A stretch of 64,000 nt of DNA. Source: Escherichia coli. Lineage in GTDB: Bacteria > Pseudomonadota > Gammaproteobacteria > Enterobacterales > Enterobacteriaceae. Under the pieces are notes generated by a model that saw only the letters and a list, made by a program, of their open reading frames with translations, had not been told where the DNA came from and ran no database searches. Every line of letters starts with the position of its first letter. Position 1 is the stretch's first letter. The stretch lies in assembly GCF_024502345.1 (NCBI RefSeq), contig NZ_JALDNN010000001.1; one strand, 5' to 3'. Positions 20,145-61,253 of this stretch are shown here, in pieces. A program made the translations under genes and the position numbers.

Positions 20145-20220
20145 GCCCGGATAGCTCAGTCGGTAGAGCAGGGGATTGAAAATCCCCGTGTCCTTGGTTC
20201 GATTCCGAGTCCGGGCACCA
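20145..20220 (+). tRNA. pheU: tRNA-Phe (GAA anticodon)
   Basis: 76-nt GCCCGGATAGCTCAGTCGGTAGAGCAGGGGATTGAAAATCCCCGTGTCCTTGGTTCGATTCCGAGTCCGGGCACCA with anticodon loop TTGAAAA and 3-prime CCA; position after yjdC corresponds to pheU. Confidence 0.97.
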
Positions 20221-25766: not shown

Positions 25767-26194
25767 TCCATTTTAATTTATCTACATCGCTTAAAGGCAA
25801 ATGATGCCACCGGCTACCAATTAAAAATTATCTCAACCTGAGAGATTTTTCCAGACTCCAAACGAAAATAAAAAACTACTCGTCACGTCCCTCCTGGCAC
25901 ATAGCCGACACCAAAACCAGCAACATATGGACAACGGTCCCTGCCCTGATGGCAGGTAATTGTATCAGACTTAAACACATATTATTTCTGTGAACTCCCC
26001 CCAACGGCAGTCCTTTCCTCTGAAGACCAGAACCAGACCGTAAAGCCTGCTCTTTCTGCATTTCCCGTATTAATTCATACCATGTGGCACCAGCATTCCC
26101 TTCGCCACACCAGAAAATCAATTCCCCAATAAAAAAGTGCCGTGCCGGGGATGGGTCAACCCTGACGTTCTTTACACCAGTCACAGGAGGTTAT

Positions 26195-29838: not shown

Positions 29839-31251
29839 TTACCCCATCGCCCGGTTAACGACTTCGTGGTAACGCGCCGGGGAAGCGTGCAAGTAAAGCT
29901 CCGTTACTTTGATAGTGCTGTGACCCAATAAGTCTTTGACGGTGTGAATGTCGGCCCCGCTCTCAATGAGCTTTGTCGCAAAGGTATGACGCATCTCATG
30001 GATGGTGAACGGTGGAATACCCGCAGCCTCACAAAGTCGTTTTTGCAGGCGACGCGGCTCAGCAACCGGATTGTCGGTTCCCTTGCCCGGAAATACCCAG
30101 CCTTCATCACCCAGATGCTGACGCTGTTCTGTCAGAAGAACGAAAGCCTTATCACATACCGGTACACGGCGTAGTTTGCCGTTTTTGGTATGGCGAAGGG
30201 TGATAACCTTGCGGCTCCAGTCCACATCTTCAAGACGAAGGTGACGGGTTTCCCCCAGACGCAGCCCCGTCAGGGCAAGGAACATGAGAAGAGCAAGGGC
30301 TTCATGATCGGGTTTACCATTACGCCAGCGCTCACAGACGTCCATCCAGCGCTGAAGCTGGGAGTCATCCATGGCACGGCGATCTGACGTCACTTCAGGC
30401 AGCGCTTTGATATAAAGCGCCGGAGAGCGGCTGATGTATCCCATGCGTATAGCCCAGGTAAACACCGCTTTAATGAGCGCCAGATGGCGGTTGCGGGTGG
30501 CAGGCTTGAGATCGAGATTATGCAGATAGCTCAGAATATCTGCCTCCGTCATACCTGCCAGCTTTTTGTCACCGAGAAGAGGGCGCAGGTATTTACGGAT
30601 CTTAGAAAGGTCGGTGTTAGCTGAACGCTTAACGCCCGTGCTGAGTACGCTTTTCTCATACTCATCCACAAGCTCATTAAACGTCATTTTACTGTGAGTA
30701 AGAAAACGCTCACCGTAAGCCTCAACGGCGGTCTTGAGCTCCTGAATTATTTTAAAGGCATGCTCCCTTGCATCTTTAATTGAAATTTCCGGGTAGCCTC
30801 CTACGGCAACGTAGATATTCTTTCCGCGAATACTTTTGCGGACAATAAATTTAATGCGACCTGATGGATAGAATATTGCCTTAAGTCCGGTTAACTTCTT
30901 ATCGCTGGTCTCGATTGTTTGTGCAGCTTGTACTGCACGGATTTTATATTCATCAAAAAGGGCTTTAGTAAAAACACCTCCAGTATTTTTAGGTGCAACC
31001 CCTGGATATTCTACAACATCAGATACTCCAGAGTCGGAATACCCCTGAGCTTCCACATCTACATTGAAGGAATTTTTATGAGCAGCTGTGATGCTCTTTT
31101 CATCCAGCACTTGCGTTATTTTATTTAAAGGGTAATTAACTTTCATAATATGTACATGGTCCTCTGAAAATTCAGATGATAATGAGTAATTTAATATGTC
31201 GGCCAACAATGGGATAAGCTTATTTATTCGTGGCATCACTTTCAAGCCCAT
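29839..31251 (-). CDS. tyrosine-type site-specific integrase
   Basis: ORF with catalytic boxes ALTGLRLGETRHLRLEDVD and HEMRHTFATKLIESGADIHTVKDLLGHSTIKVTELYLH; true start codon uncertain. Confidence 0.85.
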   Translation of the reverse strand: MGLKVMPRINKLIPLLADILNYSLSSEFSEDHVHIMKVNYPLNKITQVLDEKSITAAHKNSFNVDVEAQGYSDSGVSDVVEYPGVAPKNTGGVFTKALFDEYKIRAVQAAQTIETSDKKLTGLKAIFYPSGRIKFIVRKSIRGKNIYVAVGGYPEISIKDAREHAFKIIQELKTAVEAYGERFLTHSKMTFNELVDEYEKSVLSTGVKRSANTDLSKIRKYLRPLLGDKKLAGMTEADILSYLHNLDLKPATRNRHLALIKAVFTWAIRMGYISRSPALYIKALPEVTSDRRAMDDSQLQRWMDVCERWRNGKPDHEALALLMFLALTGLRLGETRHLRLEDVDWSRKVITLRHTKNGKLRRVPVCDKAFVLLTEQRQHLGDEGWVFPGKGTDNPVAEPRRLQKRLCEAAGIPPFTIHEMRHTFATKLIESGADIHTVKDLLGHSTIKVTELYLHASPARYHEVVNRAMG

Positions 31252-42316: not shown

Positions 42317-45300
42317 ATGACACAACAGATACACACCATTGCTGAATCCAATAACTTTATCGTCCTTGATAAATACACCAAAGTTCTGGAGAACGGCGAC
42401 AGCTACCAGAGCGAATCGGATCTTGAGCGGGAACTGATTCAGGACCTTCTGAATCAGGGCTATGAATTTATATCCGTTAAGTCACCGACAGCGATGCTGG
42501 CGAATGCACGGGACCAGCTTCAGCATCTTAATGGTGTGGTGTTTAACGAAAGTGAATGGCGGCGCTTCGCAGAGCAGTATCTGGACAGCCCCAGTGACAG
42601 CAGCCTGGACAAAACTCGTAAAATCCATATCGACTATATCTGTGATTTCACGTTTGATGACGGTCGTCTGGAAAACATCTATCTGATAGATAAAAAGAAC
42701 CTGCTGCGCAATAAGGTGCAGGTCATTCAGCAGTTTGAACAGACCGGCTCACACGCTAACCGTTATGACGTCACCATTCTGGTTAACGGCCTGCCACTGG
42801 TGCAAATCGAACTCAAAAAGCGCGGCGTGGCTATTCGTGAAGCCTTTAACCAGATACACCGTTACAGCAAGGAAAGCTTTAACAGCGACAACTCCCTGTT
42901 TAAATACCTGCAACTGTTTGTGATATCTAACGGAACCGATACCCGGTACTTTGCCAGTACCACTAAGCGGGATAAAAACAGCTTTGATTTCACCATGAAC
43001 TGGGCGAAGTCGGATAACACTCTGATTAAGGACCTGAAGGACTTTACCGCCACCTTCTTCCAGAAACATACCCTGCTGAATGTTCTGTTTAATTACAGCG
43101 TGTTTGACAGCAGCCAGACTCTGCTCGTCATGCGCCCCTATCAGATTGCCGCCACTGAGCGAATCCTCTGGAAAATTAACAGCTCATTTAAAGCGAAGAA
43201 TTGGTCAAAACCCGAAAGCGGCGGGTTTATCTGGCATACCACCGGGTCAGGCAAAACCCTGACCAGTTTTAAGGCTGCACGACTGGCAACCGAACTGGAC
43301 TTTATAGACAAAGTCTTCTTCGTGGTCGACAGAAAAGACCTTGATTACCAGACAATGAAGGAGTATCAGCGCTTTTCTCCGGACAGCGTCAACGGTTCGG
43401 ATAATACAGCAGGCCTCAGAAGAAACCTGGATAAGGACGATAACAAAATCATCGTCACAACCATTCAGAAACTCAATAACCTGATGAAAGCCGAAGCTGA
43501 CCTGCCCGTCTATCAGCAGCAGGTAGTGTTTATCTTTGATGAGTGTCACCGCAGCCAGTTTGGTGAGGCCCAGAAAAACCTCAAAAAGAAATTCAGACGC
43601 TTTTATCAGTTTGGTTTTACCGGTACGCCTATTTTCCCGGAAAATGCACTGGGGGCAGAAACCACAACCAGCGTGTTCGGGCGTGAGTTACATTCTTACG
43701 TCATTACTGATGCGATTCGTGATGAAAAAGTACTGAAGTTTAAGGTGGACTATAACGATGTCCGCCCACAGTTTAAGTCTCTTGAAACGGAAACAGACGA
43801 GAAAAAACTCAGCGCGGCTGAAAACCAACAGGCATTTTTGCACCCCCTGCGTATCCAGGAAATAACGCAATACATTCTCAATAACTTCCGGCAGAAAACA
43901 CACCGAACCTTCCCGGGAGCTAAGGGCTTTAACGCCATGTTAGCAGTTAGCAGCGTGGACGCGGCGAAAGCTTATTACACGACGTTTAAAATGCTACAGG
44001 AAGAAGCAGAGAAGAAATCTGGCAGCTATAAATGCCTTCGGGTGGCAACCATCTTCTCCTTTGCTGCAAATGAAGAGCAAAGCGCCATTGGTGATATTAC
44101 TGACGAAAGCTTTGATACCAGTGCAATGAACAGCAGCGCGAAGGAATTCCTGGATTCAGCCATTGATGACTATAACAATCACTTTAAAACCAATTTCAGC
44201 ACCGACAGTAACGGTTTCCAGAACTACTACCGCAATTTAGCTCAACGAGTGAAAAATCAGGATATTGACCTTCTCATCGTGGTGGGAATGTTCTTGACTG
44301 GCTTTGATGCCCCGACGCTTAACACTCTTTTCGTTGACAAAAACCTCCGTTATCACGGCCTGATGCAGGCATTTTCCCGCACAAACCGTATCTATGATGC
44401 CACCAAAACCTTCGGCAATATCGTGACTTTCAGGGATCTGGAGCGTCCGACCATTGATGCCATCACACTATTTGGCGACAAAAACACCAAGAATGTGGTG
44501 CTGGAAAAAAGCTACGAAGAGTACATGCAGGGCTTTACCGATGCGGCAACCGGTGAGGCTAAACGAGGTTTTATGGCTGTTGTTTCGGAGCTGGAGCAGC
44601 GCTTCCCTGACCCTGCCAGTATCGACAGTGAAAAAGAGAAAAAAGCCTTCGTCAAACTGTTTGGTGAATATCTGCGGGCAGAAAACATCCTGCAAAACTA
44701 TGATGAATTTGCCACGCTGAAAGCCCTGCAGAAGGTTGATATTAGTGACCCGGAAGCGGTAGAAACCTTTAAAGCAGAGCACTATGTGGATGATGAAAAA
44801 TTTGCTGAATTACAAACCATTCGTCTCCCGGCAGAACGTAAAGTTCAGGACTATCGCTCAGCATACAATGATATCCGGGACTGGCAGCGACGCGAAAAAG
44901 CATCAAACGACAGGGATAAATCAACCACAGACTGGGATGACGTGGTGTTTGAAATTGACCTGCTGAAGTCGCAGGAAATTAACCTGGATTACATCCTTGG
45001 TCTGATTTTCGACCACAATCGTCAGAAAAAAGGTAAAGAAGCCCTGACTGAAGAGGTCAGACGCTTAATCCGCTCAAGTCTGGGCAACCGTGCCAAAGAA
45101 GGTCTGATTGTTGACTTTATTCAGCAAACTAACCTTGATGACATGCCGGACAAGGCCAGTATCATTGATGCATTCTTTACCTATGCTCAGCGTGAACAGC
45201 AACGGGAAGCAGAGGCGTTGATTAAGGAAGAAAACCTCAATGAAGAGGCTGCAAGGCGCTATATCCGCACATCACTAAAACGGGAGTATGCCACCGAAAA

Positions 45301-45433
45301 TGGGACGGAGCTAAATGAGACGCTACCAAAGCTCAGTCCGCTGAATCCTCAGTACAAAACGAAAAAGCAGACTGTATTCCAGAAAATTGGGGCATTTATC
45401 GAAAAATTTAAAGGGGTTGGAGGACACCTCTAG
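42317..45433 (+). CDS. hsdR: type I restriction enzyme R subunit (helicase/endonuclease)
   Basis: 1038-aa ORF with helicase motifs RPYQ, TGSGKT and DECH (IFDECHRSQ). Confidence 0.9.
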
Positions 45434-45654
45434 ATGTCAGATAAAAGAACAATGCGCTACCGCAATTTATGGGTAAGATTGTATCTTTTAACCTGCATCA
45501 GACCTGTTATGATCGATGAGGCGCTGGTTAATGTTAATGCTAACTGGATGAGTTTTAATCGCTGATTCAGACAATTAGCGTCCAGAACTCACAGAAACCA
45601 GTGCTTGATTTTGGATGGTAAAGTGCTGAACGGACGTATCACAGGAGAATGCTT

Positions 45655-45993
45655 ATGAGCGTAACTATAAAAGACGATCGACTCCGTACCATCGCTACCT
45701 TTGACGGTAAAACCCTGAAAGACGACCGGCTCAGGACCATCGCAACGTTTGACGGTAAAACCCTGAAAGACGACCGGCTCAGAACCATCTCAACTTTTGA
45801 CGGTAAAACCCTGAAAGACGACCGACTCCGCACCATCGCTACCTTTGATGGCAAGACCCTGAAAGACGATCGACTCCGCACCATCGCAACATTTGATGGT
45901 AAAACACTTAAAGACGATCGACTCAGAACCATCGCGACAGTTAATGGTAATGTTAGTATTGTTGTTTTGGCGTTTGCTGCTCGGCTATTTTAG
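45655..45993 (+). CDS. hypothetical tandem-repeat protein
   Basis: ORF after AGGAGA with five full and one partial 16-aa repeats (DDRLRTIATFDGKTLK), encoded by 48-bp tandem DNA repeats; could instead be a non-coding minisatellite. Confidence 0.4.
   Translation: MSVTIKDDRLRTIATFDGKTLKDDRLRTIATFDGKTLKDDRLRTISTFDGKTLKDDRLRTIATFDGKTLKDDRLRTIATFDGKTLKDDRLRTIATVNGNVSIVVLAFAARLF
45667..45960. repeat. 48-bp tandem repeat array, about six copies
   Basis: Near-identical units AAAGACGAYCGRCTCMGNACCATCGCNACNTTTGAYGGYAARACCCTG repeated head to tail. Confidence 0.85.
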
Positions 45994-46270
45994 GGCTAAG
46001 AGCCTATCTCAACAGAGATTAATACTTTACCCAAAAGATATAATATCAGTATCTAAAAGCCTGCACCGTCTGATTTTTAGTCATTGAATCGCGAGAACGG
46101 GAGATAATTTCTCTTCTATGGGTATAGGCTCATAATGGTAGGATTCTGGTAGCTTCGAAACGCCGTATTTAAGCAATACTTAAGTCATGAAGAACCAAAC
46201 TTAAACATTTTTCTCAAGGTAAACCAGTAAAAAACTGTTAGTGCTGATGGATCGTTTGGGCTCTTTTAAA

Positions 46271-46319
46271 GGGATTGAAAATCCCCGTGTCCTTGGTTCG
46301 ATTCCGAGTCCGGGCACCA
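46271..46319 (+). repeat. 49-bp direct repeat of the tRNA-Phe 3-prime end (island junction, att-site core)
   Basis: GGGATTGAAAATCCCCGTGTCCTTGGTTCGATTCCGAGTCCGGGCACCA is identical to tRNA-Phe positions 20172..20220. Confidence 0.95.
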
Positions 46320-46333
46320 AATTCATATCAACG

Positions 46334-46358
46334 GACCTCCACGGAGGTCCGTTTTTCG
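46334..46358 (+). terminator. hairpin terminator after the partial tRNA copy
   Basis: GGACCTCC-ACG-GAGGTCCG followed by TTTTTCGTTT. Confidence 0.7.
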
Positions 46359-46516
46359 TTTCAGAACGCCACAATTTAAGCGTTCTGCCTCCAAATCAAT
46401 TCTACCGAACTCAACCAGATTCCCCCCACATCAACCCCATTGTGTGGGTATAATTGCGGGTATACCCCAGTTCGACAGAATTTGTACCCTCTTTAACGCA
46501 TTCAGAAGGCTGAACT

Positions 46517-47782
46517 ATGGCACTGACTGACGCAAAAATCCGGGCTGCAAAGCCCACTGACAAGGCTTATAAACTCACTGACGGGGCCGGCATGTTCCTG
46601 CTGGTTCATCCTAATGGTTCCCGTTACTGGCGTCTCCGTTATCGTATTCTGGGTAAGGAGAAAACCCTGGCACTTGGTGTGTATCCGGAAGTTTCTCTCT
46701 CCGAAGCTCGTACAAAACGGGATGAGGCCCGAAAACTGATTTCGGAGGGGGTTGACCCTTGCGAACAGAAAAGAGCTAAAAAAGTAGTCCCTGATTTACA
46801 ACTCTCTTTTGAACATATTGCACGACGCTGGCATGCCAGTAATAAACAATGGGCACAATCACACAGCGATAAAGTACTCAAAAGCCTCGAGACACACGTT
46901 TTCCCCTTTATCGGCAACCGGGATATCACAACACTCAGTACCCCGGACCTGCTTATCCCTGTTCGTGCTGCAGAAGCTAAACAAATTTATGAAATCGCCA
47001 GTCGTCTGCAGCAAAGAATATCTGCTGTAATGCGTTATGCCGTACAGTCTGGCATCATCAGATATAACCCGGCTCTGGATATGGCTGGTGCATTGACCAC
47101 GGTAAAACGCCAGCATCGCCCTGCTCTGGATCTTTCACGCCTGCCTGAACTTCTGTCGCGTATTGACGGTTATAAAGGCCAGCCTGTCACCCGACTGGCA
47201 GTTATGCTGAATTTACTGGTTTTTATTCGTTCCAGTGAACTCAGATATGCCCGCTGGTCTGAAATTGATATTGACAATGCCATGTGGACTATTCCAGCCG
47301 AACGCGAACCTCTGCCAGGCGTAAAATTTTCATACCGGGGCTCCAAGATGCGAACACCACATCTTGTGCCACTCAGCCAACAGGCTGTAGCCATACTGGC
47401 AGAACTTCAGACATGGGCAGGTGAAAATGGTCTGATCTTTACGGGAGCACATGACCCACGTAAACCAATCAGTGAAAACACCGTAAATAAAGCCCTGAGG
47501 GTTATGGGGTATGACACAACCCAGGATGTCTGTGGTCATGGATTCCGGGCGATGGCATGTAGTGCATTAATAGAATCAGGTTTGTGGTCCCGCGATGCTG
47601 TGGAACGCCAGATGAGCCATCAGGAGCGTAATGGTGTACGTGCTGCGTATATCCATAAAGCCGAACATCTGGAAGAACGTCGACTTATGCTACAGTGGTG
47701 GGCCGATTTTCTGGATGCAAACAGAGAAAGATTTATCAGTCCATTTGAATATGCAAAGATTAATAATCCATTAAAACAATAA
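46517..47782 (+). CDS. P4-type tyrosine integrase
   Basis: 421-aa ORF MALTDAKIRAAKPTDKAYKLTDGAGMFLLVHPNGSRYWRLRYR (P4-like arm-binding N-terminus) and catalytic HGFRAMA...RAAYIH; 197 bp after the tRNA-derived repeat. Confidence 0.9.
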   Translation: MALTDAKIRAAKPTDKAYKLTDGAGMFLLVHPNGSRYWRLRYRILGKEKTLALGVYPEVSLSEARTKRDEARKLISEGVDPCEQKRAKKVVPDLQLSFEHIARRWHASNKQWAQSHSDKVLKSLETHVFPFIGNRDITTLSTPDLLIPVRAAEAKQIYEIASRLQQRISAVMRYAVQSGIIRYNPALDMAGALTTVKRQHRPALDLSRLPELLSRIDGYKGQPVTRLAVMLNLLVFIRSSELRYARWSEIDIDNAMWTIPAEREPLPGVKFSYRGSKMRTPHLVPLSQQAVAILAELQTWAGENGLIFTGAHDPRKPISENTVNKALRVMGYDTTQDVCGHGFRAMACSALIESGLWSRDAVERQMSHQERNGVRAAYIHKAEHLEERRLMLQWWADFLDANRERFISPFEYAKINNPLKQ

Positions 47783-48103
47783 TCCTCCCGGGAAAATGCC
47801 CGGGAACCACCCGGGGATTATTTTTTGTTAAAAAAGGCAAAACGATATTAACTGATGTATTAAATGTTTACCGGATTGCTCCCTGCAGGTGGATTATCAG
47901 AATCCGCAGTTATTCGTTATTTATATATATTCAATAAAAAGAAACATCATAAAAAATCCCGCACCCACAGGGTGATGCGGGATAACTGACGTAAGGAATG
48001 CTGCCGGGATTTGGTGGTCCCTTGTGCTGATATGAATACAGGTTCTATTCTATACAGAATCCTTTTCAGTACAAGAGACTGTATTACAGTTTGCCATATA
48101 TGA

Positions 48104-49603
48104 TTACCTGTGGTCCGGAAGAATAAGTGGCTGCGGTTTCAGACTGTCTGCCGGCACATTTTTCTCTCCGTTAAAAACCATAACGGGTTCATTATCTTCG
48201 TCTGTCAGCGGATTGAATGGCGGTATATTTTCGGTACGAATACCGGTCAGCCACTGAAAAATGCCTGCGAAATTACGGGCACTGATTTTCCTGCTGACGG
48301 ACTGATGAGACGTGATGTCACTGGCGGTAATAATCAGGGGAACGCTGTAGCCCCCCTGCACATGACCATCATGATGAACAGGATTAGCACTGTCGCTGAC
48401 CGACAGCCCATGGTCAGAAAAGTAAAGCATTGCAAAGTGACGGGAATGCCGGCGAAGGATACCATCAAGCTGATCGAGAAAGTTATCCAGTTTACTGATG
48501 CTGGCGAGGTAACAGGCAATCTTTCGGGGATACTGCTCCAGGTAATAATTCGGCCAGGAGTTAAGTCGGTCACACGGATTCGGATGAGAGCCAATCATGT
48601 GCAGGAAAATCACCTTCGGCGAGGATTTATCCGCCAGCGCACGTTCTGTTTCCTGTAACAACAACATGTCATCCGTTTTACGGGAAGCGAAGCTGCCTTT
48701 CTTGAGGAAAACGGTATGCTCCGCATCAGAAGCAATAACAGAGATGCGTGTGTCATGCTCTCCCAGTTTTCCCTGATTGGATATCCACCATGTGCTGTAT
48801 CCTGCTTTTGCTGCCAGCGCCACCACGTTGTTGCCGGAGTCAGGGTTCTGCTCATAGTCATAAATCAGTGTCCGGCTCAGGGAAGGTACGGTACTGGCTG
48901 CTGCCGATGTATAGCCGTCAATAAATAAACCGGGAGCCGTATTCAGCCATGGTGTGGTTGGCACGGGATAGCCATATACCGACATATAATCCCTGCGCAC
49001 ACTCTCACCAGTAACGATAACAATCGTGTCATACAACGGTGTTCCCGGCAGGATTTTCCAGTTGTCAGCCCCGTGCTGACTCAGTTGTTTATAACGCTGC
49101 ATTTCACGCAATGTGTCAGTTGTTCCCACAACAATTCCTTTAACCATCCGCAACGGCCAGCTGTTTACAGAGCATAATACGAACAGCAGCAGTGCCAGCC
49201 AGTTACGGTGACCGCGGTGGTGTGTCCGCCAGAAAATCACCATGAATACCAGAATCGCGGCACTGACCAGAAAATGATAAACAGGAATCATCCCGGTAAA
49301 CTCTGCAGCCTCATCAGCCGTGGTCTGCAGCAACGCGACAATAAAACTGTTGTTGATTTTACCGTACGTCATACCCGCAGGCGCATACAGTGCACAACAG
49401 AACAGAAATAACAGCGTTGTAATGGATGTGAGGGTATTTCTGTGTGCAAGGAGAAGAAGGAGAAACAGAAGCAGCACATTTCCTGTGGCATTCTTCTCAG
49501 TGTATCCGCATGCAATTGTGATTATCACAGAAATAACAAAAAAGAATAAAAACAATAAAATCCGGGGTGTGTCGCCCGGACAAAACAGTTTTCTGATATT
49601 CAT
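48104..49603 (-). CDS. phosphoethanolamine-transferase-like membrane protein (sulfatase family, EptA-like)
   Basis: 499-aa ORF with N-terminal transmembrane region and sulfatase-domain motifs LHMIGSHPNP and YFSDHGLS. Confidence 0.7.
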   Translation of the reverse strand: MNIRKLFCPGDTPRILLFLFFFVISVIITIACGYTEKNATGNVLLLFLLLLLAHRNTLTSITTLLFLFCCALYAPAGMTYGKINNSFIVALLQTTADEAAEFTGMIPVYHFLVSAAILVFMVIFWRTHHRGHRNWLALLLFVLCSVNSWPLRMVKGIVVGTTDTLREMQRYKQLSQHGADNWKILPGTPLYDTIVIVTGESVRRDYMSVYGYPVPTTPWLNTAPGLFIDGYTSAAASTVPSLSRTLIYDYEQNPDSGNNVVALAAKAGYSTWWISNQGKLGEHDTRISVIASDAEHTVFLKKGSFASRKTDDMLLLQETERALADKSSPKVIFLHMIGSHPNPCDRLNSWPNYYLEQYPRKIACYLASISKLDNFLDQLDGILRRHSRHFAMLYFSDHGLSVSDSANPVHHDGHVQGGYSVPLIITASDITSHQSVSRKISARNFAGIFQWLTGIRTENIPPFNPLTDEDNEPVMVFNGEKNVPADSLKPQPLILPDHR

Positions 49604-49762
49604 CGGAGTATATCGACAACATTATTATGAAGAGAACAGGATAATAAAAATCAGAAATTATCTGTAAAACAGATAACAGACAACCCTGCAGTATAATTAC
49701 TGCAGGGTGTTTCCTTTTAATTACAGAAGATAAGTAATTATTATCTTTCAGGAGCAGTTTCG

Positions 49763-50503
49763 TCAGAAGTTATAAGTCACACCAAGCATGATGTCATGAC
49801 TTTTAACATCAACCTCTGATTTATATTTATCGCCCCACTCATCCTTGTAACTCACACTGCTGTCACCTGCATCAATATAGCGATAGCTGAGGTCAAGAGC
49901 GATATCCGGGGTTACGTCATAACGGACACCAGCCCCAAGGCTCCATGCAAAGTTGTCAGCAGAGTCTGAGTGTGACAACGACTCACGCCCACTGTACCCG
50001 TACCCGTAATCCCAAGTACTGATACCAGTTGTTTTCTGATGAATTCTGGCGTAACCAATCCCTGCGGATACCCATGGTGTGAATGCACTGTCGTTCCGGA
50101 AGTCATAGTACGTATTCAGCATCAGAGTGTTGACTGACACTTCATTCTTCAGGTCATCACGCCAGTAACCACCTGACCAGCTGTCTTTATCTACGTTATA
50201 CTTCGAATCAGCTTTTCCACGCGCGTAAAACTCCAGTTCTGTACGAACCGGAATACTGAACTGCGGATAAAAATCATAACCGGCCGCAATACCGCCACTG
50301 AATACCGTATCATGGTCATCGCCGCCTTTATACTTTGACGTTTCTTCCTCATCTCCTGACAGGAAACGCTGGTCTGAAAGTGACACCACAGAGGCACCGG
50401 CTTTACCGGTCAGATAAAAACCGCTTTTACCTTCCTCAGCACCTGCATTTGCTGCAAATACACAGGCTGCGGCCACCACTGAAACAGCAAAAACCTTTTT
50501 CAT
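49763..50503 (-). CDS. outer-membrane beta-barrel protein
   Basis: 246-aa ORF with signal peptide MKKVFAVSVVAAACVFAANAGA, alternating aromatic/hydrophilic strands and C-terminal ...GVTYNF. Confidence 0.7.
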   Translation of the reverse strand: MKKVFAVSVVAAACVFAANAGAEEGKSGFYLTGKAGASVVSLSDQRFLSGDEEETSKYKGGDDHDTVFSGGIAAGYDFYPQFSIPVRTELEFYARGKADSKYNVDKDSWSGGYWRDDLKNEVSVNTLMLNTYYDFRNDSAFTPWVSAGIGYARIHQKTTGISTWDYGYGYSGRESLSHSDSADNFAWSLGAGVRYDVTPDIALDLSYRYIDAGDSSVSYKDEWGDKYKSEVDVKSHDIMLGVTYNF

Positions 50504-50937
50504 TTCAATTATCTCCGTTATTGCTCCGTTGCTGCAAGCAGTACTCAGTGCATTTTAAAACCCGCCATGCGATAGTCTCAATTGAATAAAATCGATCGAA
50601 TCGATAGATGATATCGATCGTCATTAACCAGAAATTTTTATCGTATTCAGTCAGCACAGATACAACAAATGCATGCCATGCAGACAGTCATACCCGGCAA
50701 CAACAGCAGATGGTTGCTGAGCAAGCAGGGAGTGAGGCTGAATCCCGGGGAAGAAAAAACCTGTAAAATTTGTTTATTCTGCCAGGAGATAAAAGTGACG
50801 TGTGTTCATGTAACACACCAGGGACGAAAGATGCATGGACTGACAGTTTGGGGGATATGATGCAACTACAGACCAAAGTGTGAATCAGTATGACCCGGGC
50901 CAGAGTTTGTGCGGTTTCTTTATATAAAAAAGCCCAC

Positions 50938-51374
50938 GGTAATGACTCCAACTTATTGATAGTGTTTTATGTTCAGATAATGCCCGATGACTTTGTCATG
51001 CAGCTCCACCGATTTTGAGAACGACAGCGACTTCCGTCCCAGCCGTGCCAGGTGCTGCCTCAGATTCAGGTTATGCCGCTCAATTCGCTGCGTATATCGC
51101 TTGCTGATTACGTGCAGCTTTCCCTTCAGGCAGGATTCATACAGCGGCCAGCCATCCGTCATCCATATCACCACGTCAAAGGGTGACAGCAGGCTCATAA
51201 GACGCCCCAGCGTCGCCATCGTGCGTTCACCGAATACGTGCGCAACAACCGTCTTCCGGAGCCTGTCATACGCGTAAAACAGCCAGCGCTGGCGCGATTT
51301 AGCCCCGACATAGCCCCACTGTTCGTCCATTTCCGCGCAGACGATGACGTCACTGCCCGGCTGTATGCGCGAGG
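50938..51374 (-). mobile_element. truncated IS1 (right end and 3-prime part of insB)
   Basis: Begins with IS1 terminal sequence GGTAATGACTCCAACTTATTGATAGTG; minus-strand ORF 50953..51330 encodes the InsB C-terminal portion ([22 protein letters not shown]...); IS1 similarity stops near 51374. Confidence 0.85.
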
Positions 51375-51445
51375 TTACCTGCTCCCCGTTGATTAATACA
51401 CCGTGATGTTAGTAATGTCTTCATAAGCCACATGAGGACATCCCC

Positions 51446-51709
51446 ATGAAGAAGCGTTTTTCCGACGAACAGATCATATGTATTCTCCGCGAGGCCGAAG
51501 CTGGCGTTTCTGCCCGTGAGCTCTGCCGTAAGCACGCCATTTCCGACGCCACCTTTTACACATGGCGTAAGAAGTATGGCGGTATGGAGGTGCCTGAGGT
51601 TAAGCGCCTGAAGTCGCTTGAGGAAGAGAACGCCAGACTCAAGAAGCTGCTTGCCGAAGCCATGCTGGATAAAGAGGCGCTTCAGGTGGCTCTTGGGCGA
51701 AAGTACTGA
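51446..51709 (+). CDS. IS3-family transposase OrfA (HTH)
   Basis: 87-aa [52 protein letters not shown]. Confidence 0.85.
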
Positions 51710-52812: not shown

Positions 52813-53082
52813 TTATTCAAGATAGTCAAGTATGTTTTTTATATTGTCAATTAAGGCGACATGCAGGTCAGGGTCATCACATTCATCTGAATGGCAATAG
52901 GAAATATGTTGAAGTATAATTCTTTTTTTGAATTCACTAACTGTACACTCCAACTCATACACCGACCGTACGATATCAATACAAGGTTCATCATCGATTA
53001 AAAAATCCTGCATTTTATTATACTTATCAGTCAGATCTTCTATCATAGAAATTAATACGGGGTCATTAACTAACATTGGCAT
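52813..53082 (-). CDS. hypothetical small protein
   Basis: About 89 codons from MPMLVNDPVLISMIEDL with upstream AGGAGA; downstream of and co-oriented with the AraC-family gene. Confidence 0.4.
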   Translation of the reverse strand: MPMLVNDPVLISMIEDLTDKYNKMQDFLIDDEPCIDIVRSVYELECTVSEFKKRIILQHISYCHSDECDDPDLHVALIDNIKNILDYLE

Positions 53083-53488
53083 ATCTCTCCTCATAATCTG
53101 AAAGTAAAGATGGACACAGCGCTGATAAATTCCAATTCCCTTGCTTGCGGTACCGACCGGGAGGAAGATGAAACTTGTTTTTAAAAGCTCTCGTGAAAGT
53201 TTGTTGCGAATTAAAACCATACTGAAGTGCAATGTCTAGGACTGTTCTGGAAGTCAATTTCAGATCAATCGCAGCACATGATAATCGACGAGCACGAACA
53301 TATTCACCCAGCGCAACACCGGTCGTCTGTTTAAACAAACGTTGAAAATGCCATCGTGAATACCCAGACTTCTCAGCAATAAATTCTACTGGCAAGGTTG
53401 TATTCAATGAACTTTCAACCCACTGCAAAATATCTTTGACAACACTTTCAGAATATTTCCTGGTGTCCATTCTCTCCCCCCAAACCAT
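53066..53488 (-). CDS. AraC/XylS-family transcriptional regulator (MarA/SoxS-like)
   Basis: ORF with paired HTH segments LPVEFIAEKSGYSRWHFQRLFKQTTGVALGEY and DIALQYGFNSQQTFTRAFKNKF. Confidence 0.8.
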   Translation of the reverse strand: MVWGERMDTRKYSESVVKDILQWVESSLNTTLPVEFIAEKSGYSRWHFQRLFKQTTGVALGEYVRARRLSCAAIDLKLTSRTVLDIALQYGFNSQQTFTRAFKNKFHLPPGRYRKQGNWNLSALCPSLLSDYEERYANVS

Positions 53489-53562
53489 ATTCTATGAATA
53501 TATTCAAACCAGAATACGGTCTCTGAGTCTGTCATCCATGAAGAACTCAGGGACCCAACTCT

Positions 53563-56064
53563 TTATTTTCGTAATAACCTCAGGCCATTTGCCACAACCA
53601 GAAGACTGGCACCAACATCAGCAAATACAGCCATCCACATAGTTCCCATTCCCATGAGCGTGAGTACAAGGAATACGGCTTTAATACCTAGAGCGAGGCT
53701 GATATTTTGCACGAGTAAGCTGTACGTTTGTCGGGATAATTTTACAAAGGCTGGGATTTTACGCAGGTCATCATCCATTAAGGCTACATCTGCAGTTTCA
53801 ATCGCCGTATCAGTACCCATTGCGCCCATAGCAAAACCGATATCAGCTGCAGCCAGAGCCGGTGCATCATTGATACCATCACCAACCATCCCAGTGATTC
53901 CAATCCGTGAATGCTCTTCAACTGCACGATGTTTATCTTCTGGCAATTGATTCCCTCGAGCCTCATCGATTCCAACCTGAGATGCGATTGCTTTAGCTGT
54001 ATGTGGGTTATCACCAGTCAGCATAATAGTTTTAACGCCAAGTTCATGAAGTTGTTCAATCGCTTCACGGCTGCTGTTTTTAACAGTATCAGCAACAGCG
54101 AACAACCCAAGCACTTGCTTACCATCATTGAGTAAAATAACTGTTTTACCCTGGCTTTCCAGCCTTTGTACTGTTGCTTTAATCTCTGATGGACAATTAA
54201 AGTGTTCTTCAGTCAAACGCAGGTTACCAAGGTAAAAATCCTTACCTGTAATCGCGCCATGCACACCTCGCCCAACAATCGCTTCAAAGCTGTCAACATC
54301 CTGCTTTTTCAAATCAGCAGAAGCATTCACAATTGCCAGTGAAACAGGGTGATCAGAGTAACTAGCGAGACTAGCTGCAGTAGTACGAACTTCACGCTCG
54401 CTCCACCCATTGAATACCATTACGTCGGTTTGTACTGGTTTCCCATAGGTAATAGTTCCTGTTTTATCCAGCGCAAGGGCTTTTAGCTTACGTCCCTGCT
54501 CAAGATAAACACCGCCTTTAATGAGAATCCCTTTGCGAGCAGCTGCAGTAAGTCCACTAACAATCGTTACTGGCGTAGAAATAACCAGGGCACATGGACA
54601 CGCAATGACAAGCATAACTAAAGCTTTATAGATCCACTCCTGCCATGTTCCTGCCCCAAACAATGGTGGCAATACAGCAACCGCAACAGCAATACCCATA
54701 ACGACGGGGGTATAAATCTGGGAAAAGCGGTCAACAAAACGTTGTGTAGCTGCTTTGGCGCCTTGCGCCTGCTCAACGGCATGAATGATGCGAGCAAGGG
54801 TTGTATTATTTGCAGCTGCAGTGACTTTATATTCAAAAGAGCCTGACTGATTTATTGTTCCAGCAAATACAGCATCGCCCGCAATTTTATCGACAGGCAT
54901 ACTTTCACCTGTAATTGGAGCTTGGTTAATGGTGGTTTGGCCTTTGACGATTTCTCCGTCGAGACCAATTCGTTCACCTGGTTTTACCCTGACAATACTG
55001 CCCGGTTGTACGCTACTGGCGTCAACTTCCTGCCATGTTCCATCAGCTTGTTGGACCATTGCAGTTTCAGGAGTCAGGTTCATCAGGGAACCTATTGCAT
55101 TTCTGGCTCTATCAAGTGATTTGGCTTCTATCAGCTCGGCAATGGTGAATAACACCATAACCATCGCCGCTTCTGGCCACTGCCCAAGGACCAAAGCCCC
55201 AGTAACGGCAATACTCATTAGTGCATTGATATTCAAGTTGCCATTGCGAATCGAAATCCAACCTTTTTTGTAGGTTGTCAGACCACAAGAAAGCACTGCT
55301 ATCAAAGCCAACCCAGCTTCTAGCCAGTCAGGCATATCAGCCCAGTGCATCACTTCGGCTGCAAGAGCAGCTACGCCAGCAAGAGCTAATGGCCACCAGG
55401 GCTTTTTTTTCTCCTGGGTATTTTTCTTGCCGCTAGTATTATCAGAGACTTCTGGCGCGAATCCCAACGAGCGAATTGCAGCCATGATAGCTTCAAGCGA
55501 ATCCGGTGTATGGGTTACAGTCAAAACACGCTGCATCAGGTTGAAATCAAGCTCTTTAACAGCGCTCATTCCACCCAGTTTCTTTTTGATAAGATTTTCT
55601 TCAACAGGACAATCCATCTGCATAATGCGAATTTCTGTCCGTAATCCACCAGCCACAACCTGCGAGCCCCCTAGGCTACTCAATTGTTCTGGAGCAGCGG
55701 AGCAACAATCCCCCTCATGGCCGTGATCGTGGCCTTCATGAGAATGCTCTTGCGCGGCATGAGCATGGTTACATCCCTTATGATTATGCTCATCATGCGA
55801 ATGCCCTTCGCCGCCATGGCTATGGGCATCATGATTATGGCCTTCATGGTTATGGCCTTCATGGTTATGACCTTCATGGGAATGATCATCACTGCATTTC
55901 TTGTGATTATGAGCCTGCTGATCATGTGCATGATCATTTGCTTTATGTGATTCACCAGTATTCTTAACCCGGAGTCCTGTCCCTAAATTGAACGTTTCAC
56001 AGCAACTAGCCGCTTCGTCTCCTGCAGGGTTTTTGCTATTTTTTACACCACCACTCATTTTCAT
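53563..56064 (-). CDS. heavy-metal-translocating P1B-type ATPase (Zn/Cd/Pb-type, ZntA/CadA-like) with His-rich N-terminus
   Basis: 833-aa ORF with His-rich N-terminal repeats (HEGHNHEGHNHEGHNH), metal-binding DCP motif, membrane CPC motif (VIACPCALV), phosphorylation site DKTGT and GDGINDAP. Confidence 0.85.
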   Translation of the reverse strand: MKMSGGVKNSKNPAGDEAASCCETFNLGTGLRVKNTGESHKANDHAHDQQAHNHKKCSDDHSHEGHNHEGHNHEGHNHDAHSHGGEGHSHDEHNHKGCNHAHAAQEHSHEGHDHGHEGDCCSAAPEQLSSLGGSQVVAGGLRTEIRIMQMDCPVEENLIKKKLGGMSAVKELDFNLMQRVLTVTHTPDSLEAIMAAIRSLGFAPEVSDNTSGKKNTQEKKKPWWPLALAGVAALAAEVMHWADMPDWLEAGLALIAVLSCGLTTYKKGWISIRNGNLNINALMSIAVTGALVLGQWPEAAMVMVLFTIAELIEAKSLDRARNAIGSLMNLTPETAMVQQADGTWQEVDASSVQPGSIVRVKPGERIGLDGEIVKGQTTINQAPITGESMPVDKIAGDAVFAGTINQSGSFEYKVTAAANNTTLARIIHAVEQAQGAKAATQRFVDRFSQIYTPVVMGIAVAVAVLPPLFGAGTWQEWIYKALVMLVIACPCALVISTPVTIVSGLTAAARKGILIKGGVYLEQGRKLKALALDKTGTITYGKPVQTDVMVFNGWSEREVRTTAASLASYSDHPVSLAIVNASADLKKQDVDSFEAIVGRGVHGAITGKDFYLGNLRLTEEHFNCPSEIKATVQRLESQGKTVILLNDGKQVLGLFAVADTVKNSSREAIEQLHELGVKTIMLTGDNPHTAKAIASQVGIDEARGNQLPEDKHRAVEEHSRIGITGMVGDGINDAPALAAADIGFAMGAMGTDTAIETADVALMDDDLRKIPAFVKLSRQTYSLLVQNISLALGIKAVFLVLTLMGMGTMWMAVFADVGASLLVVANGLRLLRK

Positions 56065-56139
56065 TGCCTCATCTGTTAACTATACTGACGATTAAAGACC
56101 CTAATCTAACTAGAGGGTCAAGCGCATAAGGGGGGAGGC

Positions 56140-56592
56140 ATGAAAATTGGTGAATTGGCCCGTAAGGCGGATTGTCCGGTGGAAACTATTCGGTACTATG
56201 AGAAAGAAGGATTACTTCAGGCTCCATTAAGAGATATTGAAAATAACTATCGCCGTTACAACAATACTCATCTGGAAAAGTTATTATTTATCCGACGCTG
56301 CCGCTCTCTTGATATGACCCATGAGGAAATACGTGCATTGCTACTGGCAATGAATAATCACGGTAAAGACTGTGGCCCCATTGATGCAATAATCAGTGCC
56401 CATCTCACTCATGTTCAGCATCGTATTAAAGAATTAATAGCCCTGGAAATACAACTCAAAGAACTTAATAACTATTGCAGCTCAGACCGGAGCGTGGACG
56501 AATGCGGGATAGTACAGAAATTGACTGCTGATGAAGAGAATGGTGATCTTCCTTTAACCGTACCAACTGACCACTTGGGGGGTGTGCATTAG
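56140..56592 (+). CDS. MerR-family metal-responsive regulator (ZntR/CadR/PbrR-like)
   Basis: 150-aa ORF with N-terminal HTH MKIGELARKADCPVETIRYYEKEGLL and C-terminal cysteines; divergent from the Zn/Cd/Pb-type ATPase. Confidence 0.8.
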   Translation: MKIGELARKADCPVETIRYYEKEGLLQAPLRDIENNYRRYNNTHLEKLLFIRRCRSLDMTHEEIRALLLAMNNHGKDCGPIDAIISAHLTHVQHRIKELIALEIQLKELNNYCSSDRSVDECGIVQKLTADEENGDLPLTVPTDHLGGVH

Positions 56593-56681
56593 TGGTGTGC
56601 GCTTATAAGTTGATTAGACTGATGGCGTAACACAAGCCCATACAGCTTTGTGCTACGCCATCATGCCCTTAAAATAAGGGG

Positions 56682-57146
56682 TCAGGCTTTTTCCATTTCG
56701 TTACCACGAGAACGACGTTGCACTGCCCCTTCTCTCTTACCGGGATGGCTTTTAGCATCAGCGGTCATTAATGTCTGGAGTATTGGGCATTCAACTCGCT
56801 CATCCCCAGCACAGCTTTTGATCAGAGCTCTGAGTGTATCTGCCATTCGTCGCATATTTTCCATACGTCGCTCTAAATCATCCATATGCTCTTGTGCCAG
56901 ACGTTTAACATCGGCGCTCTGGCGAGATTTGTCATTCCATAACTTGAGCAAATCGGCTATCTCTTCAAGAGAAAAACCAAGATCGCGCGCACTGCGGATA
57001 AAAATCAGACGATGGACATCATTGGGTGCATAATCACGGTAGCCCGCTTCGGTACGGCCAGTAGCAGGAATCAGACCAATTTGCTCGTAATAGCGAATCA
57101 TCTTTGCGGAGATTCCTGATTCGTTCGATGCTTTACCAATGTTCAT
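56682..57146 (-). CDS. MerR-family Cu/Au-responsive regulator (CueR/GolS-like)
   Basis: 154-aa ORF from MNIGKASNESGISAKMIRYYEQIGLIP with C-terminal metal-binding cysteines (CAGDERVECP); directly downstream of and co-oriented with the CopA-like ATPase. Confidence 0.8.
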   Translation of the reverse strand: MNIGKASNESGISAKMIRYYEQIGLIPATGRTEAGYRDYAPNDVHRLIFIRSARDLGFSLEEIADLLKLWNDKSRQSADVKRLAQEHMDDLERRMENMRRMADTLRALIKSCAGDERVECPILQTLMTADAKSHPGKREGAVQRRSRGNEMEKA

Positions 57147-57159
57147 AGCTCCCCTTTTC

Positions 57160-59655
57160 TTAGTGCTCAGAGTCTTCTGCCAGCGGAGGCTGGAACCGAC
57201 GCAAACGAAGTGCGTTGCCCAGGACAAATACACTGGATAGCGCCATCGCGCCTGCAGCAAAGATTGGTGAAAGCAGCAATCCATAGGCAGGGTACAGCAG
57301 GCCTGCTGCTACAGGGATCAATGCGGCATTATAACCAAACGCCCAAAAAAGATTTTGCCTGATGTTACCTATGGTTGCCTTAGACAATCCAATAGCATTA
57401 GGCACACCCTGTAGGTTGCCGGACATTAAGACAACATCAGCAGATTCCACCGCTATATCGGTACCTGTACCAATTGCAAGCCCAATATCTGCCACGGCTA
57501 AAGCTGGGGCATCATTAATGCCATCACCAACATAAGCGACCTTACCGTAAGACTCCTTCAACCGACGAACTGCTTCAACTTTCCCTTCTGGCAACACTTC
57601 GGCAACCACTTCATCAATACCAAGCTGTCTCGCAATCGCATTTGCTGTATTGGCATTGTCACCGGTAATCATTGCGACTTTGAGCCCCAGTTGGTGCAAT
57701 GCATTTATGGCAATCGGCGTACTTGATTTAATAGGGTCAGCGACTGCGATAATGGCAGCCAGACGTCCATCAATAGCAACATAGAGTGGCGATTTTCCTT
57801 CGTTTCCAAGGCGTATCGCAGTCTTTGAAAAATACTCGATATCCAAGCCTAACTCACGCATAAATCGATCGGCCCCGACCTCTACGCGCTCTCCGTCTAC
57901 GGTAGCCCTGACGCCCATCCCAGTAATTGAATCAAACTCAGTCAACGCTGGCAGCGATATCTCTTTTCCTAGAGCAGCTTCAACGATAGCGCGGGCAATA
58001 GGATGTTCCGAACGTGATTCAACAGCGGCAACTTTTGCTAATACTAAGTCAAGCTCAAACCCTTCGGCCAACTCCAGGTCTGTCATTACTGGGCGCCCTT
58101 CAGTCAAAGTACCTGTTTTGTCTACAGCGACAACCCTGGCATCTTTAAGCAACTGCAGAGCTTCTCCCTTACGGAACAAGATCCCCATTTCTGCACCACG
58201 CCCAGTACCTACCATGATAGAGGTTGGGGTAGCCAATCCCATTGCACATGGGCAGGCAATGATCAATACAGCCACGGCATTAACCAGTGCGAAAGACAGG
58301 GCCGGTGATGGCCCAAATGTTAACCAGGCAAGGAAAGTTAACAACGCTGCCAGCATCACCACAGGAACAAACCATAATGTCACCTTATCGACCACGGCTT
58401 GTATAGGTAGTTTAGAGCCCTGGGCTTGCTCTACCATTCTGATTATTTGTGACAACATCGTCTGGCCACCAACGGCTGTTGCACGCAACCTCAATGCTCC
58501 TTTCTGGTTAACAGTCCCGCCAACCATTAAGCTTCCGGGAACTTTCTCGACGGGGATAGGCTCCCCCGTTATCATCGATTCATCGACAAAACTTGTTCCT
58601 TCACTCACCTCACCATCAACAGGTATCCGCTCACCTGGTCGAACTTCGATAATGTCATCAAGGGCTACATCACTAATGGGAATATCGATGACAATGCCGT
58701 TACGCAGCACATGCGCCTCTTTGGCCTGCAATCCAACCAAACGCTTGATAGCCTCAGACGTTCGACCTTTAGCTCGCGCCTCCATAAATCGTCCTAAAAG
58801 AATAAGAGCGACGATTACCGCAGCAGCTTCGTAATACACATTGACGGTACCTTGAGGCAAAAGACCTGGAGCAAAGGTCGCAATCATTGAATAACCGAAT
58901 GCAGCGAGAGTCCCGACGGAGACGAGAGAGTTCATGTCTGGGCCAAGTCTTAATAACGCGGGAATACCTTTCAGGTAAAAGCGCCGCCCCGGAATAGCCA
59001 ACACCAGCAATGTTAATACAAACTGGAGATACCAGCTTTCCTGGAGCCCAATGGTATCCATTATCCATTGATGCATTCCCGGTATCACATGCGACCCCAT
59101 TTCCAGAATAAATACTGGTAACGCAAGTACGGTCGCCAGAACTAAATCTTTCTTCAACGCAACCTTTTCAGCATCTTTTTTTTCTGCGGCACTATCATTA
59201 TTCTGGCTTTGGTTATCAACCAGGCTGGCTTCATAACCGATTTTTTCGATAGCAGTTATGAGGTCATCAACTCCTGCGGTTCCACGTACAGTAGCTCTTT
59301 CAGTCGCTAAATTAACAGTGGCTTCTTTTACACCTTTAACCGCTCGGAGCGATTTTTCGACACGCCCTACGCATGATGCACATGTCATGCCCTGAACTGA
59401 TAACTCTACAGAAGCTTGAGGAACCTCATAACCAACCTTTTCAACTGCTTCAACCAACGCCATACGATTAACGAATGCATTTAGGCGGATATCTGCACGC
59501 TCTGTTGCAAGGTTAACGCTTACGTTTTGTACGCCTTCAACCTTAGCCAGAGCGGCTTCAACTCGTCCAACGCAGCTTGCACAAGTCATTCCCTCAATGG
59601 GCAAGCTGACTTGAGTTTCACCATCATTAGAATGCTGTTTTTTTTGAATGCTCAT
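57160..59655 (-). CDS. copper/gold-translocating P1B-type ATPase (CopA/GolT-like)
   Basis: 831-aa ORF with two N-terminal heavy-metal-associated domains ([12 protein letters not shown] twice), CPC motif ([12 protein letters not shown]), DKTGT and GDGINDAP. Confidence 0.9.
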
Positions 59656-59840
59656 GATGTATTTCTCATCGTTATGGTCAGATAAAGAACAACCTTAAGG
59701 CTTACCATCGTGGGAAGGTCAAGCGCATTATTTTGAACATGCCGATGCCGTGGAAGGAATGGATATAAAAACCCTTTACATGAACACATATTCATATGTT
59801 ATATTGAAGGCATCATGTATAACCAACCGCTTGAGGCCCT

Positions 59841-60845
<1,005 letters not shown>

Positions 60846-60890
60846 TCAGGCCTCTGGTGATGCACTATCAATTTAGGAGGGAGAATCATA

Positions 60891-61253
60891 ATGTCCAGCA
60901 CATCAGATTGCGGCAACATACAAGACTGTTCCGCGACAGATCATGTCGCGGAGCCAGATCTATCAATGCTCTCGCAAAACGACATTGGGCAACTTTCCGA
61001 GATTTTCCATCTACTGGGGGACCAGTCAAGACTACGAATCCTGCTTTACTGTATGCGTGGTTCGGTCTCTGTAGGCGACATTGCTGAGTCGCTCCAGTTA
61101 TCACAATCTCTGGTCAGTCATCATCTGAGGTTGTTACGAAGTGCAAGGCTTGTTCGCGGAGAGAGAAAGGGTAAGTACATATTTTATAGCATAATGGATC
61201 ACCATGTAAGTCATGTTCTTCAGGACATGGTATTTCACATAGCTGAAGAATAA
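60891..61253 (+). CDS. ArsR/SmtB-family metalloregulatory repressor
   Basis: 120-aa ORF with HTH segment GDIAESLQLSQSLVSHHLRLLRSARLV. Confidence 0.75.
   Translation: MSSTSDCGNIQDCSATDHVAEPDLSMLSQNDIGQLSEIFHLLGDQSRLRILLYCMRGSVSVGDIAESLQLSQSLVSHHLRLLRSARLVRGERKGKYIFYSIMDHHVSHVLQDMVFHIAEE

Follow-up and report, generated by a model that had tools for sequence, protein, structure and literature searches.

Gene content of the locus

The stretch of Escherichia coli DNA analysed here (the window; 64,000 nucleotides of contig NZ_JALDNN010000001.1, RefSeq assembly GCF_024502345.1) is the pheU locus, with dcuA, cutA, dsbD and yjdC upstream of the tRNA-Phe gene. Three genes far downstream of that tRNA gene encode a P4-type integrase, a phosphoethanolamine transferase of the YjgX type, and an outer-membrane barrel protein of the Hra/Hek/Hes/Tia family (Table 1). 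The open reading frames (ORFs) given for this segment in a preliminary description were all reproduced by the ORF listing, with the same coordinates and strands, and Pfam support for them is strong. RefSeq holds entries identical to the three proteins (WP_001218862.1, WP_016231426.1 and WP_000755102.1), and the 5-kb region is matched at 99–100% identity in hundreds of complete genomes. The arrangement is already known and annotated, as integrase, transferase and barrel genes form the described leading-end module of E. coli islands of the LAA (Locus of Adhesion and Autoaggregation) type and of the uropathogenic E. coli (UPEC) type. We read the segment as a copy of this conserved module of tRNA-inserted islands, composed of the integrase, a YjgX-type transferase and a Hek/Hra1 adhesin, and give this reading a probability of about 0.7.

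Table 1. Features of the module and its borders, in window coordinates.
Feature	Position	Strand	Basis or remark
Second copy of the tRNA-Phe 3' 49 nt (anticodon loop to CCA), att-type direct repeat	46271–46319	+	Identical to 20172–20220
P4-type tyrosine integrase, 421 aa	46517–47782	+	Pfam Arm-DNA-bind_3, Phage_int_M and Phage_integrase
Terminator-like hairpin and T-run downstream of the transferase gene	47956–47983	-	10-bp stem with 6 GC pairs, then TTTTTTATGAT; consensus match
YjgX-type phosphoethanolamine transferase, intact, 499 aa	48104–49603	-	Pfam Sulfatase, AlphaFold2, Foldseek, catalytic residues
Promoter-like TTTACA-16-TATTAT, 38 nt upstream of the transferase ATG	49641–49668	-	10/12 consensus match
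11-bp perfect hairpin between the barrel and transferase genes, probable terminator of the barrel gene	49683–49708		Conserved across alleles
Hra/Hek/Hes/Tia-family outer-membrane adhesin-invasin homologue, 246 aa	49763–50503	-	Pfam OMP_b-brl, 3.2e-22
Promoter-like TTGAGA-18-TAAAAT upstream of the barrel gene	50552–50581	-	10/12; consensus match only
IS1 element ending the conserved module; InsB-like ORF at 50953–51330	50855–51400 (right end approximate)	-	Genome comparison

The integrase and the tRNA-Phe repeat

The integrase is 54.9% identical to Int of phage P4 over 97% of its length, and 68% identical to IntB encoded at leuX in E. coli K-12. Its three Pfam domains are recognised with E-values of 1e-29 (Arm-DNA-bind_3), 1e-27 (Phage_int_M) and 5e-17 (Phage_integrase). 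The homology to P4 Int, the arm-binding N-terminal domain and a repeat of the tRNA-Phe 3' end directly upstream all agree with its earlier designation as a P4-type enzyme. The ratio of nonsynonymous to synonymous substitution rates (dN/dS) between integrase alleles is 0.07, indicating strong purifying selection.

ARAGORN found only one tRNA in the window, the intact tRNA-Phe (pheU) at 20145–20220, and called none at the position of the repeat. The repeated segment ends 197 nt upstream of the integrase start. An exact 23-mer of the tRNA-Phe 3' end occurs in the window at 20198–20220 and 46297–46319 only, and there is no third copy of the 3' end within the window. In other genomes the same three genes directly follow an intact tRNA-Phe gene, or the integrase gene directly follows an intact pheV. 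Because the 3' 49 nt of tRNA-Phe recur before the integrase gene, and the integrase follows intact pheV elsewhere, the window holds tandem islands. Island A meets island B at the direct repeat, and island B does open at the partial tRNA copy, where the preliminary description had placed the start of an island.

The transferase: fold and catalytic site

Both motifs that had been quoted for the transferase, FLHMIGSHPNPCDRL and AMLYFSDHGLSV, are present in its translation. Pfam assigns the protein to the Sulfatase family (PF00884, 1.5e-36) and, marginally, to EptA_B_N (PF08019, 23.6 bits, just over the cut-off). It comprises an N-terminal membrane domain (residues ~12–177) and a periplasmic sulfatase-fold domain (residues ~190–450). 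The AlphaFold2 model, built with 38 homologues, is confident (pLDDT 89.2, pTM 0.81) and places helices of the membrane domain at residues 12–31, 39–53, 57–80, 108–127 and 135–177, in agreement with the hydropathy peaks. A Foldseek search with the model returned the periplasmic domain of E. coli EptC (EcEptC) as the best match (E 6.7e-19, TM 0.73); full-length MCR-1 (546 columns) and Neisseria meningitidis EptA (NmEptA) aligned with the model across the membrane and the catalytic domain. Searching solved structures by sequence likewise gave E. coli EptC first (1e-17), followed by the catalytic domains of NmEptA and MCR-1.

No variation occurs at residues E200, T238, H340, D397 and H398, either among the five K-12 paralogues or across 38 family members. 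E200 and D397 align to Glu245 and Asp461 of EcEptC, which are essential for zinc binding according to a review of the superfamily. Pfam, fold and residues thus all agree with membership of the phosphoethanolamine transferase superfamily, as first proposed, and the enzyme looks competent. Had the catalytic Thr or the metal ligands been missing, this would have told against that proposal; all of them are in place.

The transferase: position within the superfamily

The closest match in K-12 is the yjgX pseudogene, with 91% amino acid identity over residues 177–499, 74% over residues 93–183, and 91% identity at the nucleotide level. OpgE is 30.6% identical over the whole length (E 1e-76). Within the catalytic domain, YhbX is 32%, EptC 25%, EptB 23% and EptA 22.5% identical. 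The best NCBIfam model is that of the CptA subfamily, for which the transferase scores 107 bits against a cut-off of 404. It scores 73 bits with the lipid A transferase model NF028537 (cut-off 500), 40–59 bits with the EptA equivalogs (cut-offs 561–660) and 16–30 bits with the MCR models (cut-offs of at least 1,075).

In a neighbour-joining tree, a distance tree computed without bootstrap, the transferase forms a clade with homologues from Salmonella, Erwinia and plasmids; OpgE is the sister of this clade, and EptA and EptB lie on a distant branch. A scan of ~100,000 species-representative genomes gave no member of the YjgX clade at 50% identity or more; the relatives found were 31–38% identical and were mostly OpgE orthologues. 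Of 80 species loci, 75 gave a higher score with OpgE than with the window transferase and form a distinct group. None of the 75 OpgE-type loci has an Hra-type barrel gene or a P4-type integrase gene.

On sequence grounds, the transferase is a member of the YjgX orthologous group and the intact form of K-12 yjgX, because the leuX locus of K-12 shows the same layout, with intB and yjgX on opposite strands. The preliminary description had proposed comparison by BLASTP and phylogeny with the Ept and MCR families. That comparison upheld the superfamily assignment, but the protein falls into a YjgX clade with OpgE as its sister and not with EptA or MCR. At 22–23% identity to EptA and EptB, with NCBIfam scores far under the cut-offs, the earlier EptA/MCR framing is not sustained.

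Two other assignments were considered and rejected. The protein is not an OpgE orthologue, given an identity of only 30.6% and the presence of core opgE as a separate locus in K-12. Lpt-O, encoded by Shigella plasmid pSFxv_2, was considered as the closest mobile relative, but BLASTP detected no similarity to it (best E = 1.3). Upstream of the transferase and barrel genes, no PmrA or PhoP box was found at up to two mismatches.

A 511-aa paralogue, 52–53% identical to the transferase, is encoded on large E. coli plasmids (locus L012, 5001–6536; H72–H74). It adjoins a DUF2569 gene, with hok/gef copies and an exclusion-determinant gene near. Some records label this paralogue 'lipid A phosphoethanolamine transferase', and no evidence for the label was found.

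The barrel protein

The 246-aa protein had been described as an outer-membrane barrel; the OMP_b-brl match agrees, though its identity as a member of the Hra/Hek/Hes/Tia family had been missed. It has a signal peptide (...ANAGA/EE) and a C-terminus of ...TYNF with the terminal Phe. It shares these features and a ~25-kDa barrel with Tia, Hek, Hra1, Hra2, Hes and PagN of Salmonella. Identity to a RefSeq-annotated Tia is 63.7% over 248 aa, the whole length, and an allele located beside the pap operon in UPEC-type islands is 96% identical. In UniRef the exact protein bears the name 'Heat resistant agglutinin 1', and 'adhesin/virulence factor Hek' is among the members of its 90% cluster. The best sequence match in the PDB is Neisseria Opa60 (E 2e-4), the template on which the authors of the LAA paper modelled Hes. 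Allele differences are concentrated in the predicted loops; in the same paper Hes is 65% identical to Tia, and its differences likewise lie in loops. Together with the signal peptide, the terminal Phe and the Pfam and Opa60 matches, this suggests an Opa-like barrel, probably of eight strands with four variable surface loops. Values of dN/dS of 0.10–0.25 indicate purifying selection.

The 3' end of the gene matches the hra1 cloning primer. The site of the hes_det1 detection primer is absent, and identification as a Hes allele was rejected. Judged by the published primers, Hes is excluded, and Hek and Hra1 are not separable; the reverse primers as printed are one base longer than all loci checked. 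CFT073, where IS66 truncates the transferase gene and the barrel gene has been deleted, is unusable as a Hek reference. From these sequence comparisons the protein is placed in the Hek/Hra1 subgroup and is not named further.

Linkage and transcription of the two cargo genes

The barrel gene, at 80% of its length or more, is present in 1,097 of 5,426 E. coli genomes, and a contiguous segment of transferase and barrel genes in 1,087. Further genomes carry a tia-type allele beside the same transferase gene. A Salmonella island has the two genes in the same order and orientation, with 58% identity for the transferase and 51% for the barrel protein. Transferase homologues without a barrel neighbour are found on an IncI-like plasmid (52% identity), in Erwinia (50%) and in Enterobacter lignolyticus (39%). 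The species scan added no further case of the linked pair to those in E. coli and Salmonella.

Between hra-type and tia-type loci the synonymous divergence (dS) is 0.15 for the transferase gene and 1.1 for the barrel gene, and transferases that are 96% identical stand beside barrels that are only 64% identical. Therefore, the barrel allele has been exchanged beside a conserved transferase gene. Comparison of the loci suggests that a recombination boundary lies within the barrel gene, on the side adjoining the transferase gene. The 3' 194 nt of the barrel gene (49763–49956) have ~86% nucleotide identity to tia (for example, in locus L008), and the remainder is too diverged for megablast.

The conserved hairpin and the promoter-like site between the two genes point to separate transcription. 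The hairpin has one stem mismatch in the tia-type locus, and the promoter-like site of the transferase gene is conserved in both hra-type and tia-type loci. An Rfam sweep of 45000–51500 gave only a chance match, to rli40 at the hairpin (21.9 bits against a cut-off of 100). It appears that the two cargo genes are transcribed as separate units and inherited as a pair.

The gene for OpgE, the nearest characterised paralogue, adjoins ompX, which encodes a small eight-stranded barrel, and the two genes are convergent (K-12, locus L006, 3451–5598). In 61 of the 75 species loci (L020–L099), the opgE orthologue has an ompX gene no more than 6 kb away. The orientation differs from that of the island pair, OmpX is barely similar to the window barrel, and the resemblance may be a coincidence.

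Comparison with known islands

The same order of genes is found in module I of the LAA, located at pheV in Shiga toxin-producing E. coli (STEC) negative for the LEE (locus of enterocyte effacement), and in pheV islands of UPEC; the integrases are 97% and the transferases 95–96% identical to those in the window. In the LAA order given in a 2026 paper (PMC13340028), a tetratricopeptide repeat (TPR) gene for SisA is followed by the phosphoethanolamine transferase gene and the gene for the outer-membrane barrel Hes. The LAA paper places the hes stop codon 3,342 bp from the integrase gene and 4,805 bp from pheV. The corresponding distances are 3,343 and 4,806 bp in a locus of our set (L010) with the order integrase, TPR, hypothetical, transferase and barrel gene. 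A 2018 survey of STEC found a putative YjgX or YhbX phosphoethanolamine transferase gene in all pheU, pheV and selC islands analysed. The module in the window differs in lacking the sisA/TPR gene and a small ORF between the integrase and transferase genes. It is also interrupted by IS1 immediately past the barrel gene and continues into metal-resistance genes, whereas the LAA and UPEC islands continue into ato or pap genes. Genomes without this IS1 align only up to window position 50854, and others run on into an annotated IS1A.

K-12 yjgX (b4575) lies beside intB at leuX, in KpLE2 (PR-Y), and follows the tRNA gene in the same layout, with a P4-type integrase gene on the plus strand and the transferase gene on the minus strand. 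It is 5'-truncated and disrupted, has IS2 between yjgX and intB, and lacks a barrel gene, whereas the copy in the window is full-length and intact, is located at pheU and has kept its barrel neighbour. A defensin screen that included a K-12 yjgX deletion proved uninformative, as the hit turned out to be a false positive and yjgX is a pseudogene in K-12.

Among characterised enzymes, OpgE (YbiP, class IX), of the sister clade, shares Cys344/Cys364 as well as the catalytic residues with the window transferase, but it is encoded by a core-genome gene convergent with ompX, whereas the window transferase is island-borne and not an orthologue. EptA and MCR-1 (class I) have the same fold, two domains, Thr nucleophile and Glu/Asp/His zinc site, but belong to a different clade, with 22% identity in the catalytic domain only. 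Lpt-O of Shigella flexneri (class IV, 506 aa, plasmid-encoded) is comparable in size, mobile location and sulfatase superfamily, and lacks the BLASTP similarity noted above.

Proposed roles of the gene products

In the proposed mechanism, the integrase would target the 3' end of tRNA-Phe. The transferase is predicted to be an inner-membrane enzyme with a periplasmic zinc-dependent sulfatase-fold domain, in which Thr238 would take phosphoethanolamine from phosphatidylethanolamine, the probable donor, and pass it to a periplasmic or outer-leaflet acceptor. This acceptor is most likely a glycan, either the core of the lipopolysaccharide (LPS) or a periplasmic glucan, rather than the lipid A phosphates used by EptA and MCR. 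The Hek/Hra1-type barrel, predicted to be eight-stranded, would act as an adhesin, invasin or autoaggregation factor.

Among intact transferase alleles dN/dS is 0.12–0.18 at a dS of ~0.15; therefore, intact copies are maintained by selection. Several observations weigh against the module reading or parts of it. The transferase gene is truncated in K-12 and CFT073, and at least 80% of it is kept in only 1,450 of the 2,973 genomes with a match; it is frequently decayed, and many backgrounds can therefore do without it. No obvious Shine-Dalgarno sequence lies in front of its ATG (49604–49623, ...GATATACTCCG ATG), unlike the barrel gene, which has GGAG at -14 to -11, and the weak ribosome-binding site suggests modest translation. 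Promoters and terminators were called only by consensus matching. The almost invariable linkage to the barrel gene could reflect functional coupling instead of simple co-inheritance. Finally, placement in a clade does not fix acceptor specificity in this superfamily, for which the review distinguishes 11 classes with differing acceptors.

Alternative explanations

Two other assignments of the transferase were weighed. In the first, the island would carry a duplicate of OpgE, and the enzyme would modify osmoregulated periplasmic glucans with phosphoethanolamine. No characterised relative is nearer than OpgE, which aligns over the full length and belongs to the sister clade, and one source names a 37%-identical relative 'glucan phosphoethanolaminetransferase'. 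However, identity of ~31% to a protein that E. coli already encodes in its core genome, and the split in the species scan between OpgE-type orthologues and YjgX-leaning sequences, argue otherwise, and purifying selection on the mobile copy would stay unexplained if the activity were redundant; a duplicate of OpgE is thus unlikely. The other assignment, along the lines of the preliminary description, is a lipid A phosphoethanolamine transferase of the EptA/MCR kind, which would make cells less susceptible to polymyxin and cationic peptides. Superfamily, two-domain architecture and catalytic residues are shared, full-length MCR-1 and NmEptA are among the top folds, and acceptor specificity is hard to read from sequence in this superfamily. 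Against this stand the low identity to EptA and EptB, restricted to the catalytic domain, the NCBIfam scores, the grouping in the tree with OpgE and the lack of a PmrA or PhoP box upstream. The gene is also common, occurring in about a quarter of E. coli genomes. To our knowledge, no association of a yjgX-type gene with colistin resistance has been reported. According to the review, moreover, OpgE, which acts on glucans, and E. coli EptC, which acts on heptose I, confer no resistance to cationic peptides or polymyxin in E. coli, and these are the nearer classes. Hence, lipid A modification of the EptA/MCR kind is very unlikely; the polymyxin suggestion found no specific support, and a polymyxin phenotype cannot be inferred from placement in the YjgX clade.

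The close linkage raises the question of whether the transferase is a dedicated partner of the adhesin, decorating the barrel or nearby LPS and so tuning its exposure, charge or heparan sulfate binding. The adjacency in nearly all genomes with the barrel gene, its recurrence in Salmonella at 58% and 51% identity and its survival of barrel allele replacement (dS 0.15 versus 1.1) would fit such a role, as would the barrel gene ompX beside opgE in the sister clade and the protein acceptors known in the superfamily from the review (pilin for PptA, FlgG for Campylobacter jejuni EptC, CjEptC). Yet the hairpin and the transferase gene's own promoter-like site suggest independent transcription, and the two proteins do not co-vary, the transferase being 96% identical beside 64%-identical barrels. 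Plasmid and Erwinia copies have no barrel neighbour, and simple co-inheritance at an island end would likewise produce tight linkage. When cloned alone, Hek, Tia and Hra1 show activity in K-12, a strain that has no functional yjgX. A dedicated partnership is accordingly regarded as distinctly unlikely. The remaining possibility, that the transferase gene is a functionless relic carried with the island, is in keeping with the pseudogenes in K-12 and CFT073, the fragments that are all that about half of the matched genomes hold, and the weak ribosome-binding site. It does not fit the intact frame, the full set of catalytic residues, the dN/dS values or the confident model, and is extremely improbable. 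The reading as a conserved leading-end module with a selected, probably glycan-directed YjgX-type enzyme accommodates these data best.

Significance of the module

YjgX-type enzymes form a common, island-borne clade, present in between about a quarter and a half of E. coli genomes. The clade represents widespread predicted envelope-modifying enzymes, encoded beside a recognised adhesin in almost every adhesin-carrying genome. The transferase gene is not to be taken for a colistin-resistance determinant, as nothing specific ties the clade to lipid A modification. Published island-deletion mutants lost the transferase and adhesin genes together, so that the contributions of the two genes are merged there. 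The hes-sisA deletion in PMC13340028, a 5,485-bp segment, included the transferase gene and part of atoS; therefore, the virulence and biofilm phenotypes are not assignable to hes and sisA alone.

A bolder proposal, which we consider a long shot, is that the YjgX-type transferase and the Hra-family barrel constitute a functional two-gene unit affecting adhesion, aggregation or immune evasion. If this were true, hes and hek phenotypes, including those of the 2026 hes-sisA deletion, would be due in part to the transferase, and the opgE-ompX adjacency would hint at an older link between this branch of enzymes and small barrels.

Other genes in the window

The region between intact pheU and the partial tRNA copy (20221–46270) is a composite defence-type island. 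It includes genes for SIR2-like and HerA-like anti-phage proteins (below the family cut-offs), DUF6602 and DUF927 proteins, an insertion sequence (IS), a GmrSD-like gene and the type I restriction system hsdM, hsdS and hsdR. Two further P4-family integrase genes are located there at 26084–27379 (+) and 29839–31251 (-), and no integrase gene directly adjoins the intact tRNA-Phe gene. The last gene before the second tRNA-Phe copy, at 45649–45993 (+), encodes a 114-aa protein with about six tandem 16-aa repeats (KDDRLRTIATFDGKTL) and a match to the Pfam '5-fold beta-flower protein' family (PF21785, 3.4e-11). The same junction is present in another genome (locus L019).

In island B, the region past the IS1 and an IS3-family element (53066–61253) is a metal-resistance cluster with genes for an AraC-type regulator, a His-rich P-type ATPase, a MerR regulator, a second P-type ATPase with two HMA domains, a CDF efflux protein and an ArsR regulator.

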